32,000 nucleotides of DNA from Candidatus Baldrarchaeota archaeon (GTDB lineage: Archaea; Asgardarchaeota; Baldrarchaeia; Baldrarchaeales; DXJG01). Position numbers and translations under genes: made by a program. Positions 4,657-8,799 of this stretch are shown here, one piece after another; within the stretch, counting starts at the first letter, position 1, and each line of letters opens with the position of its first letter. The DNA lies in contig DXJG01000009.1 in NCBI GenBank assembly GCA_019056805.1, positions 269,473 to 301,472 of the forward strand, written 5' to 3'. The notes under the pieces are model-generated. The model was given only the letters and a program-made list of their open reading frames with translations. It was not told the DNA's origin and searched no databases.

Positions 4657-5778
4657 TTACACCTCGGTTAATACCTTCTTAACTTTCTCAACAACATAAT
4701 TAACATCCTCTTCACTAAGAGCAGGATGAACAGGAAGAGAAAAAACCTCCTTAGCAACTTTCTCAGCTACAGGAAAACTACCTTCAACAAAATCAAACTC
4801 CCTGTAACTAGGCTGAAAAGGTATAGGAACAGGATAATAAACCCTCGCCTGCACACCCTCCTTATTTAAACCCTCAACAATGGAATCCCTCTTCTTCGCA
4901 TCAACCCTAACAGTATAAATATGATACGAATGTTTAGCATACTCTGGTTCAAAAGGCAAAACAAGATCTAAACTCTCAAACTCCTCACCATAAATCTTAG
5001 CAATTTCTCTTCTTTTCTCAACAAACCTATCCAATTTTTTAAGTTGAGCAAGACCAATGGCAGCCTGAATTTCAGGCATCAACAAATTATAGCCAAGAAT
5101 AACATGTCTATAATCACGAACCTCACCATTAAAACGCAAAAGCCTAGCCCTCTCAGCAACCTCCTCATCACTAGTAACAATAATACCTCCACCACCAGTA
5201 GTCATATTCTTAGTAGGCCAAAAACTAAAACACCCAACATGACCAAGACCACCAACCTTACGACCCTTATACTCGGCGCCATGAGCTTGAGCAGCATCTT
5301 CCAGAACAAACAAACCATACTTCTCAGCAACTTCAAAAATAACATCCATATCCACAGGAAGACCATAAAGATGAACAATCACGATACCCTTAGTTCTCTC
5401 AGTAACAACATCTTCAATTTTATTAACATCTAAATTATAAGTTCGAGAATCAATATCTACAAAAACAGGCTTAGCGCCCACAAGACGAATACAATCGGCG
5501 GAGGCAACAAAACTAAAAGGAGTAGTAATAACTTCATCCCCAGAACCGACACCCAACGCAAGAAGAGCTATATGAAGAGCAGAAGTACCACTATTAACAG
5601 CAACACCAAACCTAGCACCACAATACTCAGCAAATCGCTTTTCAAACTCCCTAACTTTAGGACCATTCATTAACCAACCACTTTCCAAAACCTCACGAAC
5701 AACCTCAAACTCCTCATGATCTAAAACAGGCCTAGCAATAGGAACAACCTTACCACTCAACCAAACCAACTCCACCAA
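4657..5778 (-). CDS. DegT/DnrJ/EryC1/StrS-family PLP-dependent aminotransferase
   Basis: VNSGTSALH, IVHLYG, EDAAQAHGA, SFWPTKNMTTG (Schiff-base Lys), GYNLLMPEIQAAIG, SLPVHP. Confidence 0.95.
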   Translation of the reverse strand: MVELVWLSGKVVPIARPVLDHEEFEVVREVLESGWLMNGPKVREFEKRFAEYCGARFGVAVNSGTSALHIALLALGVGSGDEVITTPFSFVASADCIRLVGAKPVFVDIDSRTYNLDVNKIEDVVTERTKGIVIVHLYGLPVDMDVIFEVAEKYGLFVLEDAAQAHGAEYKGRKVGGLGHVGCFSFWPTKNMTTGGGGIIVTSDEEVAERARLLRFNGEVRDYRHVILGYNLLMPEIQAAIGLAQLKKLDRFVEKRREIAKIYGEEFESLDLVLPFEPEYAKHSYHIYTVRVDAKKRDSIVEGLNKEGVQARVYYPVPIPFQPSYREFDFVEGSFPVAEKVAKEVFSLPVHPALSEEDVNYVVEKVKKVLTEV

Positions 5779-5923
5779 AACAATTCAACAACATACAACC
5801 ATACCAAACCAAATATACATTCACAAATTTTCCTTAAAAATAATATCACAAGTGGACAAAAATATTGAAACTGAAACTATCCAGAGACAAAAATCAATAC
5901 AAATGAAAAATAAAACGATAATT

Positions 5924-6436
5924 TTATTCTTTTCCACTCATGCTCCAGGTAAAAATCCCAGAAATCAAGCTAATTGCAGCCAACACCAGATGAGTAACAA
6001 AACGTCTAAAAACAACCAAACCCAAAACAACTAGAAAAACACCAAAAACGATGCCAATTAAAGCATACAATTGTTGCCTAGAAAAACTCTTAACGCTCAA
6101 AATTTTAGCCAACATAAAACTACCAAACCTAAACACCATATTTTTCAAACCTACCCAAAACATCAAAAACCTATACACAAACCTATTCAAAAACGACCCA
6201 CTAATAACAATCGGCCTCTCAAATATTTTAGAAGAACGTAAACACACCCCAGCAGCACCGCAATTTTCACACTTCAAAAGCAAAAATATGCCCTTCTCAC
6301 AACTCCTCACATCAACTCGCCCTTCCCAACCACACTCTCCACACTTTACAACACACTGCGTTTCCCTAACCATATCCATTACACAAACCTCTAAGATAAA
6401 TTTGATTATCAGATATTTAAACCAACCGCTTACCAT
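5924..6436 (-). CDS. Hypothetical membrane protein with N-terminal zinc ribbon and two C-terminal TM helices
   Basis: CGEC...CENC pair, then hydrophobic LYALIGIVFGVFLVVLGLVVF and LVLAAISLISGIFTW. Likely start is the ATG at 6379. Confidence 0.6.
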   Translation of the reverse strand: MVSGWFKYLIIKFILEVCVMDMVRETQCVVKCGECGWEGRVDVRSCEKGIFLLLKCENCGAAGVCLRSSKIFERPIVISGSFLNRFVYRFLMFWVGLKNMVFRFGSFMLAKILSVKSFSRQQLYALIGIVFGVFLVVLGLVVFRRFVTHLVLAAISLISGIFTWSMSGKE

Positions 6437-6747
6437 TCAAACACCATCTAACGGCGTGTTCCAAACAAAGTAAGTTCTTAAAAACTAAAAACAGACAAAT
6501 ACAACCCACAAAATCCCAAAACACTACAAGATCAGACAAATAAACAAAAAACAAATTTCATAAACTTCTGATACACCACACCGATAAATAAACCCAAAAA
6601 CCCAACACTACTGCACATAGAAACCTCTCCAAAAAGAATTGTAAACATATCGTCATATCTAAAATCTAATCAATGTAAAACCAAAAATCCTCTCTTCCTA
6701 TCAAATCATTATTTAAACTATGACATTATTAAGAAAAAGATCATAGT

Positions 6748-7173
6748 CTAACTTGATACTAACAGCCATATTGCAACACATCCTAAAGCTATACCCAACA
6801 GTTTCTTAGAGCTCATAGATTCACCAAGAAAAACCCAAGAAAACAACACAAGAAAAATAAACATTAAAACAGACATAATAGCCTTAGCACGACTAACCTC
6901 AATATAACTCAAAGGAATACTATAAAGAAGAGTATTTACAAACCCAATAGCAAAAGCAAAACCAACACAAAGAGTAAAAACAGCAAAAACAGTAAACCTA
7001 AAATGCAAAATATCAAACAAACCAGTCCTTAAAGCCTTAAACAAACTCTCAACCTCCAACTCACCAATCTTCGAAACACCCCACTTATAAACAACATCAC
7101 CAACAGCATAACCCAAAGAAAGCAAACACAAAAACAAATAAACAAACCTCAACTCCACAGCAAATCCCTCCAA
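6748..7173 (-). CDS. Small 4-TM DMT/EamA-superfamily membrane protein (ArnE/ArnF-like)
   Basis: 141 aa with four hydrophobic segments, GDVVYKWG, LSYIEVSRA, and the typical DMT C-terminus FLGESMSSKKLLGIALGCVAIWLL. Confidence 0.75.
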   Translation of the reverse strand: MEGFAVELRFVYLFLCLLSLGYAVGDVVYKWGVSKIGELEVESLFKALRTGLFDILHFRFTVFAVFTLCVGFAFAIGFVNTLLYSIPLSYIEVSRAKAIMSVLMFIFLVLFSWVFLGESMSSKKLLGIALGCVAIWLLVSS

Positions 7174-7230
7174 CCTTTTTTAACTTTAACGACAGGAAAT
7201 TCCCCTTCTGAGGGGATGAAAGCCGATATA

Positions 7231-7238
7231 CTTATATA
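7231..7238 (+). promoter_or_regulatory. Candidate archaeal TATA box inside the element, upstream of the omega-RNA
   Basis: cttatata lies about 25-30 nt upstream of the start of the GC-rich structured segment (~7260). It also reads tatataag on the minus strand. Confidence 0.5.
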
Positions 7239-7258
7239 TTCCCTACCAAATATATTTT

Positions 7259-7315
7259 GTGTTGAGTCTCCTAGGGCTGGGACGGCCCGAAGTAACGCCT
7301 GTGCGTGGTCGATGA
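7259..7315 (+). pseudogene. tnpB remnant: a GTG start fused to the last ~14 codons of a TnpB-like C-terminus
   Basis: Translates as MLSLLGLGRPEVTPVRGR*. The GxGxPEVTPV tail is typical of TnpB termini that overlap their omega-RNA. Confidence 0.55.
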
Positions 7316-7451
7316 TTAAAGGAGACCCGACATCCGGCACCCCTACCTAGGTTAGCCGAAAGGGCTGCCGATGAAGGCAAGTGCCGATGGATGAAGCAGG
7401 AAGCCCCACGCGTAGGCGAAGGGCAGTTCACCAACAAAACAACCTAATAAA
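7260..7451 (+). ncRNA. TnpB omega-RNA (reRNA)-like scaffold (~7260-7431) plus flank-derived guide (~7432-7451)
   Basis: Hairpin gggcu/ggccc with a GGGAC loop that can pseudoknot to 3' GUUC (7426-7429). ccugu (7298-7302) pairs with gcagg (7396-7400) inside the GAUGAAGCAGGAAGCCC motif. Long stem 7331-7340/7381-7389 encloses two short hairpins. Transcript ends are inferred, not observed. Confidence 0.75.
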
Positions 7452-7496
7452 CCTTAATACACACAACATCCAAAACTTAATATAACCACCCGAATT

Positions 7497-8468
7497 TTAA
7501 CCATGTGCTTTTCTAGATTTTTCTTTAAACCACTTTATAGTCCTTAACAACCCTTCCTTTAACTCTACCTTAGGTTTAAAACCTAAAACTTCCCTGGTTC
7601 TACTAATATCAGCGCAACTATATCTAATGTCCCCGGGACGGAGATCAGAATAAACAGGTTCAACATTAACACCTATCAACTCAATAAGAGTTTTAGCAAG
7701 CTCATTAATACTCGTACACCTACCACTACCAACATTAAAAACACCATCAACAGCATTCTTCGAAAACATAGCCAACATAGTAGCTTCAACAACATCTTCT
7801 ACAAAAACAAAATCCCTCACCTGATTACCATCACCAAAAATAACCGGAGGCTCACCCCTAAGTAACCTATTAATAAAAATAGAAATAACACCACTATAAG
7901 GACCATAAACCTGTCTAGGACCATAAACATTAAAATAACGCAGAACAACAGCCTCCAAACCATAAACACGATAAAAAACCCTACAATAAAACTCTCCAGC
8001 CAACTTAGAAACAGCATAAGGAGAAATAGGATCCAAAACATCATCTTCACACCTAGGAACACCGCGGCCCTCACCATAAACAGCACAAGAACCAGCAAAA
8101 ACAAAACGCCTAACACCCGCATCAACACAAGCTTTCAAAACATTCAAAGTACCACCAACATTAACATCCTCCACCAAAACAGGGTCCTCAACAGAAAGAG
8201 GAACACTAACCACAGCAGCCAAATGAAAAACAACATCAACCCCCTCAACCGCCTTCCTGACAACATCAAAATCTCTCACATCACCATGAATCAAAACAAA
8301 ATCATCACGACCTAAATGATGTTTTAAATTTTCCATTTTACCAGAAGAAAAATCATCTAAAACAATAATCTCAAAACCCTCAGAAACTAACCTATCAACC
8401 AAATGACTCCCAATAAACCCGGCACCACCAGTAACCAAAACCCTAACGCAACCACACAATTCCATCAC
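7497..8468 (-). CDS. NAD-dependent epimerase/dehydratase (extended SDR, GalE-like)
   Basis: VLVTGGAGFIGSHL, FHLAA, YAVSK (YxxxK), LRYFNVYGPRQ, GDGNQVRDFVFVEDVV, FNVGSG. Confidence 0.95.
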   Translation of the reverse strand: MMELCGCVRVLVTGGAGFIGSHLVDRLVSEGFEIIVLDDFSSGKMENLKHHLGRDDFVLIHGDVRDFDVVRKAVEGVDVVFHLAAVVSVPLSVEDPVLVEDVNVGGTLNVLKACVDAGVRRFVFAGSCAVYGEGRGVPRCEDDVLDPISPYAVSKLAGEFYCRVFYRVYGLEAVVLRYFNVYGPRQVYGPYSGVISIFINRLLRGEPPVIFGDGNQVRDFVFVEDVVEATMLAMFSKNAVDGVFNVGSGRCTSINELAKTLIELIGVNVEPVYSDLRPGDIRYSCADISRTREVLGFKPKVELKEGLLRTIKWFKEKSRKAHG

Positions 8469-8506
8469 TCTCTCTGTTGATGATCCCTTTTACTGAACAA
8501 GCGGCA

Positions 8507-8520
8507 TATATAAATGTTTT
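8507..8520 (-). promoter_or_regulatory. Candidate BRE/TATA for the epimerase gene
   Basis: The minus strand reads aaaaca-tttatata about 40 nt upstream of the start codon at 8468. Confidence 0.45.
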
Positions 8521-8799
8521 AAATTTCGCGTTCTAAGTGTCAATAAAACAAATTAAAAGTAAACTATTAGGGTTTTCTATTTCACTTCTTTCTTCTACTA
8601 GAAATAAAATCAGTTAAAATTTAACTATTTTTTTGAGTTCTAATAGTCGAAGGAAACCTAGATATGGCTCGACATTCTTTAAGACCATTTATAAAGTTGG
8701 TATTTTTCAATAAAAAAATAGGATAGATGATTGATGAATATTAAAAGAAATTTTCTCAGAATTTTGTTTAACTCAATGAACAGAAAAGTAAACTAGTAC

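Follow-up and report, generated by a model that had tools for sequence, protein, structure and literature searches.

The locus at positions 7185–7431 (+) of the window, the whole stretch of 32,000 nt analysed here (G000:C17:269473-301472, in a 1.92-Mb, 18-contig assembly that is 91% complete), raises the question of whether a transposon left without any protein gene can still supply a guide RNA. In the preliminary description it was taken for an IS200/IS605 mini-element that retains its ends, a promoter and the ωRNA of TnpB but no protein gene, and this reading is borne out by a covariance-model match of the RNA part and by the homology of the left end to those of its relatives. The sequence comparisons make it very likely that the locus is a protein-less deletion derivative, PATE- or MITE-like, of an archaeal tnpB-carrying (IS1341-like) IS200/IS605 element; in its identity and origin as such our confidence is higher still. 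Whether its RNA is still made and loaded is a different matter. We propose this only tentatively, as a possible but rather doubtful present-day use, because the left end is decayed, the transposase is missing and the central domain of the RNA has diverged.

Boundaries, Left End and Coding Content

The element forms an island of 52% GC between flanks of 31–37% GC and lies between two minus-strand ORFs, encoding an EamA-like membrane protein (6748–7173) and an NAD-dependent epimerase (7497–8468). Alignment with copies from the congeneric genome G002 gave a length of 247–248 bp, replacing the earlier estimate of about 242 bp. Homology between copies ends at GTTCAC and the flank differs in every copy; no direct repeat is common to the flanks ...CCTTTTTTAAC and CAACAAAAC... 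of the element. Each end has a subterminal hairpin, at 7201–7216 on the left and at 7403–7424 on the right, although the left end of this copy has lost its outer stem. The left-end hairpin, an 18-codon relic, the scaffold helices, the right-end hairpin and GTTCAC were all recovered from the sequence and its folds at or near the positions first proposed.

The motif TTTAAC occurs in two tandem copies, at 7179–7184 and 7185–7190, and directly precedes ten related left ends (including L017, L027, L029, L034, L045, L053, L054, L062 and L065). A TTTAA TAM had initially been placed at 7185–7189. The motif does precede the left end, but the site has to be moved 6 nt further left: since 7185–7190 aligns with the element's own TTTGTC or TCTGTC in the G002 copies, the TAM, TTTAA(C), corresponds to 7179–7183 or 7179–7184 (+), just outside the left end. 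Judged by the same alignment, the TTTAAC at 7185–7190 is a mutated element start.

The left end itself (7185–7227, +) is degenerate, and was delimited by the alignment with the G002 copies (A4), by folding and by the left-end consensus of full-length elements. Its inner hairpin, in which 7201–7205 pair with 7212–7216, folds as ssDNA with −5.6 kcal/mol (z about −1.6 to −2.0), which is weak evidence alone and gains weight only because the relatives have homologous left ends. Together with this hairpin (7201–7216), the conserved GATGAAAGCCGA (7215–7226) is kept in the window. The G002 left ends form a two-tier hairpin, with an outer stem of 7–8 bp and an inner hairpin (−9.8 and −14.2 kcal/mol), whereas in the window only the inner one is found, and 4 of 6 positions of the outer arms (7188–7193 and 7222–7227) still pair. 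Thus the hairpin seen at first is indeed homologous to those of relatives, but its outer stem has decayed.

Just inside the left end, at 7232–7239 (+) rather than at 7231–7238 as originally given, lies the TATA-like box TTATATAT, a candidate archaeal promoter, with the first scaffold hairpin some 35 nt further on. An A/T box is found at the same place in relatives, as CTTAAATAC in L029, L045 and L065, and also in gene-less copies. Those three loci are full-length, tnpB-bearing elements with the same left-end consensus: TTTAAC outside, a two-tier hairpin ...TCGGGC GGGAAGTCCCC...GGGGATGAAA GCCCGA and the TATA-like box, in the order seen in the window; in L029 and L045 the same scaffold family follows about 1.57 kb downstream. 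The expected full-length parents with the same ends were therefore found as far as tnpB is concerned, but no tnpA was found in the element's own genome. The element around the tnpB gene of that genome (L002) has a similar left end.

Between box and scaffold a remnant of tnpB can be recognized (7259–7315, +). This frame of 18 codons (7259–7312) and a stop reads ...LLGLGRPEVTPVRGR, ends in ...GLGRPEVTPVRGR before the stop and carries GLGRP..PV; in translation it resembles the TnpB tail ...AGLGRPLAPVE, the C-terminus of TnpB being ...NAGLGRPLAPVE. A protein-coding reading of the overlapping ORFs (44–64 aa) was considered and rejected, as the region is already explained by the covariance-model match and the tnpB-tail relic.

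An Archaeal ωRNA Scaffold

For the RNA part a covariance model, R1, was built from 33 TnpB-linked scaffolds, with the window and its close relatives left out. The underlying alignment (A3) has a consensus fold of 31 pairs, 13 of which show compensatory changes. As had been asked of such a model, R1 matches the window: the match covers 7262–7431 over the full model length, on the + strand only, with 46.7 bits and an E-value of about 1e-10, so that the RNA part is a member of the R1 ωRNA family. The RNA fold z-score was −2.46 for the + strand vs. −1.64 for the − strand. All the family-wide helices that can be aligned by R1 still pair in the window, and the conserved blocks are intact. The central 84 nt, unlike the TnpB-linked form, were aligned by R1 as an insertion.

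The scaffold begins with a hairpin at 7274–7288 whose loop is centred on GGA. It is followed by CCUGU (7298–7302), paired with GCAGG (7397–7401), and by a long central stem of 9 bp with one bulge (7331–7340/7381–7389). The right-end hairpin (7403–7424; −7.5 kcal/mol, z −2.95) and the terminal GTTCAC (7426–7431) complete the structure, after which the flank CAACAAAACAACCTAATAAA (7432–7451) begins. A pseudoknot could be formed by GGAC of the first-hairpin loop and GUUC of the terminal GUUCAC, a pairing of 4 bp whose bases are invariant within the subfamily. No covariation was found for it; across subfamilies there is only a one-sided change from G-U to A-U (loop GGAAC). Covariation, which the preliminary description had expected for stems and pseudoknot alike, thus holds for the stems in the TnpB-linked set but not for this short pairing of invariant bases.

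In searches of the whole window no Rfam family was matched at gathering thresholds, and at E ≤ 10 only chance-level hits were obtained around the element (drum RNA, 16 bits; sR41, 11 bits). Within its own genome R1 has three matches, namely a TnpB-linked scaffold (148.9 bits), the window element and a degenerate, TnpB-less scaffold on contig C18. The last of these (G000:C18:39361-39497, − strand, locus L071; 44 bits) sits behind TTTAT and a TATA-like box and ends in GAGTTTGC instead of GTTCAC.

Deletion Derivatives and Gene-less Copies in Related Genomes

That a deletion removed the ORFs and left the promoter region beside the RNA was part of the original proposal. Several independent deletion derivatives in the metagenome set support such an event bringing the promoter region of the left end next to the RNA. 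In L034, of about 240 bp, the scaffold is preceded by a left end, a TATA-like box and a short relic of tnpB; L053 and L054 retain a longer tnpB relic that includes DRDYNAAMNIL; and in L062 the left end is fused to the last 150 codons, i.e., half of tnpB.

In a sample of 151 genomes of the phylum R1 has matches in 42, the largest number in one genome being about 20. From 60 matches fetched we scored 52 for an upstream tnpB (eight from G007 were without the end motif used for scoring), and many of these were without one. In G043 gene-less copies outnumber full-length ones by eight to one among nine; in G095 nine of 15 are gene-less, with three full-length and three truncated; and in G052 four to five of six have no upstream tnpB. 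The eight G043 copies, of about 235 bp each, run from TTAT(C)-like motifs to GTTCAC, lie in unrelated flanks and carry GTTTAAAT after the left-end hairpin. The suggestion that a family of such copies exists therefore applies to the relatives (G043, G095), but the subtype of the window is single-copy in its own genome.

The 17 gene-less copies of G043 and G095 alone have 96.6% of cells paired. Among them 13 pairs are changed on both sides, compared with 5.0 ± 1.5 after shuffling (0/500) and 1–4 in slid controls; as both genomes belong to one genus the shuffle test is inflated, and the slid controls are the safer comparison. Gene-less copies that are widespread, in several-fold excess and with the fold kept fit selection on the RNA, and hence its use in trans, better than simple decay.

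The subtype of the window also occurs in G002, at non-orthologous loci. The copy on contig C128 is complete and has a well-folded left end, and contigs C69 and C86 break off within another copy. In the C128 copy the central stem is broken, with 3 of 6 pairs remaining as read from A4, which indicates that the subtype does decay.

Mobility and Empty Sites

No match to Y1_Tnp (PF01797) was found in the element's own genome (91% complete), G002, G043 or G095. Intact Y1 tnpA genes exist in G012 and G017, and contig C191 of G012 has a tnpA pseudogene upstream of tnpB and its R1 match. With the outer stem of the left end decayed, no Y1 transposase found and only a single copy of the subtype, the element is probably immobile now; that it could still move in its own genome is unlikely.

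No clean empty site, TTTAA(C) followed by CAACAAAAC, of the kind looked for since the preliminary description, was seen in either three congeneric genomes or four further metagenome runs. In contigs of four DNA runs aligned to 6200–8600 no joint across the element was seen. One contig from another sample spans 7111–7553, i.e., the element and both junctions, with zero differences; other run contigs match the two conserved blocks and then diverge, and thus represent other members of the family. G001 and G003 (L021 and L022, respectively) align on both sides but without a block of about 0.9–1 kb that holds the EamA-like ORF and the element.

In G001 and G003 no more than about 190 nt separate the orthologues of the two neighbouring genes. 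A similarity of the guide region to this G003 spacer (25 nt, 92%, E 6e-4) was rejected as an empty site because it is A/C-rich, of low complexity and not TAM-adjacent. Positions 6437–6460 of the window also resemble the G003 spacer, more weakly than the 25 nt right of the element. The sequences hint at a short duplication around the block of about 1 kb with the EamA-like ORF and the element.

In the reverse test, flanks of the G002 copies were mapped to the genome of the window; both sites hold other DNA there, and no clean empty site was obtained. The intergenic site of L027 (G002 C128) corresponds to G000:C17:266423-268467, occupied by an unrelated element with a 447-aa tnpB product about 1 kb before the start of the window. 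A C17 site with a mini-element in G002 and the 447-aa tnpB element in the other genome looks, by sequence, like an insertion hot spot. The contig ends of G002 C69 and C86 (L017/L003) map 1.9 kb apart (G000:C9:478660-480557), and between them lie two ORFs on the minus strand, 266 and 249 aa long. If C69 and C86 are parts of one copy, the G002 element would sit at a 1.9-kb deletion, with its right flank within coding sequence.

A Candidate TnpB Partner and the Predicted Guide

The sole other similarity to the element within its own genome lies 35 kb downstream, where the 3′ end of an ORF of 400 aa matches both conserved blocks. This ORF (G000:C17:310647-311846) encodes the only intact TnpB of the same family in the genome and has OrfB_IS605, Cas12f1-like TNB and HTH_OrfB_IS605 domains. 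It aligns with ISDra2 TnpB (PDB 8bf8) over residues 5–362 at E 3.5e-47, and its GIDMG, IEDL and DRDYNA align with the RuvC motifs of the top PDB match, 9yyg, which covers the residues that 8bf8 also covers; by this alignment its D-E-D triad is intact. A pattern search of metagenome contigs gave 41 loci, mostly full-length tnpB with products 50–64% identical to the 400-aa protein, and in the full-length ones the 3′ end again contains both RNA blocks.

TnpB relatives at 50–74% identity (loci L139–L213) were also found in MAGs labelled Archaeoglobales, Alkanophaga, Hydrothermarchaeota and Thermoplasmata, as well as Bathyarchaeia, Hadesarchaea, Methanomethylicia and Heimdallarchaeota, and this distribution over many archaeal phyla suggests that the family has spread widely by horizontal transfer. 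At L002:213-330 (G000:C17), upstream of the tnpB gene for the 400-aa protein, a short frame MSKFGSLRRIVIPKSICKRL... overlaps the stretch that immediately precedes the start of tnpB.

A look-up of public runs for 7100–7600 listed none with RNA. If the element is in use, transcription would start near 7260, some 25 nt past the TATA-like box, and run through the scaffold into the flank, yielding a stand-alone ωRNA with the 3′ guide CAACAAAACAACC... By analogy with TnpB ωRNAs (PMC10691335), the predicted guide is CAACAAAACAACCTAATAAA (7432–7451, +), the flank directly 3′ of the right end. The RNA would be loaded in trans onto a TnpB of the same family, the candidate being the 400-aa protein; such loading is predicted from the published TnpB model, and the protein's own scaffold differs from the window RNA in the central domain. 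In line with the homing scheme of that model, the complex would cleave the TTTAA(C)-guide joint that precise excision would leave, and recombination would then restore the element. As for a second target, no TAM-adjacent match with ≤3 mismatches in 16 nt was found in the element's own genome, where the guide has only two TAM-adjacent matches, with 5 mismatches in 20 nt.

The main rival to a working stand-alone ωRNA is an inert fossil of the same origin, from which no useful transcript is made, on which no TnpB loads, and which persists as its deletion is neutral. This is a serious possibility, somewhat short of probable. It is favoured by the decayed outer stem of the left end, the single copy of the subtype, the failure to find tnpA in the genome and the divergence of the central domain from TnpB-linked scaffolds. 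It also agrees with the state of other copies: the broken central stem of the sister copy on G002 C128, and the second degenerate, TnpB-less scaffold on C18. Moreover, G002, which carries the window subtype, has no TnpB of the same family at E ≤ 1e-10 in its 82% complete assembly, and G001 has only a truncated relic. Against a fossil stand the alignable family-wide helices, still paired, and the intact conserved blocks beside a decayed left end, as well as the retained TATA-like box. The presence of an intact same-family TnpB in the genome, and of gene-less relatives elsewhere that hold the fold through compensatory changes, likewise speaks against it.

A bolder form of trans use is that of a guide-RNA gene retained by the host, with the left end lost, promoter and scaffold kept and a K-turn/K-loop for L7Ae, the gene-less copies then being a selected, dispersed guide set with which one TnpB polices many loci. 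We consider this improbable. If true, it would represent a step towards a CRISPR-like split into one effector and many guides.

A K-loop-like Insertion in the Window Subtype

The subtype-specific insertion contains a K-loop-like motif at 7307–7327 (GGUC, a GAU bulge, tandem GA...GA, GACC), and a hairpin with a GAUGAA loop is found at 7366–7379. The insertion with the motif is common to the window and G002 contigs C69 and C86, is replaced by other sequence in the C128 copy and is absent from all 33 TnpB-linked scaffolds. By its sequence it could be an L7Ae site.

Such modules would also fit a domesticated archaeal small RNA, acting either in an L7Ae RNP or as a fixed TnpB guide that regulates a host locus. 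A motif of K-loop geometry shared with C69/C86 and missing from the TnpB-linked set would be in keeping with this, as would the decay of the left end but not of the RNA part and the identity of the other-sample contig across the element and both junctions. Against it stand the exchange of the insertion for other sequence in the C128 copy, the lack of any TAM-adjacent near-match of the guide elsewhere in the genome and the occurrence of the motif in only two or three sequences, too few for covariation support. We regard domestication as very improbable.

Relation to Known Systems

Stand-alone ωRNAs, mobilised without effector or transposase in genomes that have effector-bearing loci, are described in PMC10691335, which cites the 2021 OMEGA paper and according to which they work in trans with compatible effectors. 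The window element resembles them in having a guide scaffold without an effector or transposase gene, a same-family effector locus in the genome and a guide taken from the flank, with trans use by a compatible effector to be expected. It differs from those described there in belonging to an archaeal TnpB family, in the TATA-like box inside a left end that is decayed and in the diverged central RNA domain, and trans activity here is predicted. PATEs "often encode ωRNAs" that need TnpB in trans (Meers et al., bioRxiv 10.1101/2023.03.14.532601). Those of Geobacillus are likewise protein-less, with IS200/IS605-like ends and an ωRNA, but in the Geobacillus genome TnpA is active and some 47 elements can be mobilised. 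In the genome of the window, which comes from an uncultured archaeon of subsurface or marine metagenomes, the search for TnpA found none, and the subtype has a single copy.

With the TnpB-ωRNA of ISDra2 (PDB 8bf8, 8exa, 8h1j) the locus shares a homologous candidate partner protein, an RNA encoded in the 3′ part of tnpB plus the right end, and a guide that starts at the transposon boundary. Unlike in ISDra2, however, the RNA is uncoupled from the tnpB gene, its scaffold belongs to another, archaeal ωRNA family without an Rfam match, and the TAM is TTTAA(C) instead of TTGAT. Archaeal noncoding RNAs from tnpB 3′ ends have been described as sotRNAs of IS1341-type tnpB (PMC4615843) and as ωRNAs of archaeal IS200/IS605 elements (PMC12558985). 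These overlap an intact tnpB, whereas in the window element tnpB has been deleted, which puts the RNA part directly behind the left end. The concept of a stand-alone or PATE-borne ωRNA is thus already published, and the element, though it illustrates the concept clearly, is an ordinary case and does not represent a system of a new kind. Its value is in annotation, as it comes with a covariance model for an ωRNA family missing from Rfam, with the TAM TTTAA(C) and with element boundaries, and it offers material for asking whether archaeal ωRNAs are loaded in trans and whether they may depend on L7Ae.

The Neighbouring EamA-like Gene

The TTG start of the divergent EamA-like gene (6748–7173, −), at 7171–7173, abuts the element at 6 nt from the TAM, so that the upstream region of this gene is the element itself. 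The ORF scores above the Pfam cut-off for EamA (31.5 vs. 28.2 bits). Both facts would suit a role of the element as a promoter donor, in which the near-palindromic A/T box at 7226–7239 drives the EamA-like gene. Yet the box lies about 55–65 nt from the start codon, vs. the 25–30 nt or so expected for a leaderless archaeal mRNA, and occupies the same place in elements with unrelated neighbours; we regard this role as extremely improbable, and take the box to be a candidate promoter of the ωRNA. The surrounding region, 5500–8500, has a strong strand bias, with GC skew reaching −0.7 and AT skew +0.5: A and C prevail on its + strand, the genes on the minus strand are rich in G and T, and the element is the only stretch without the bias.
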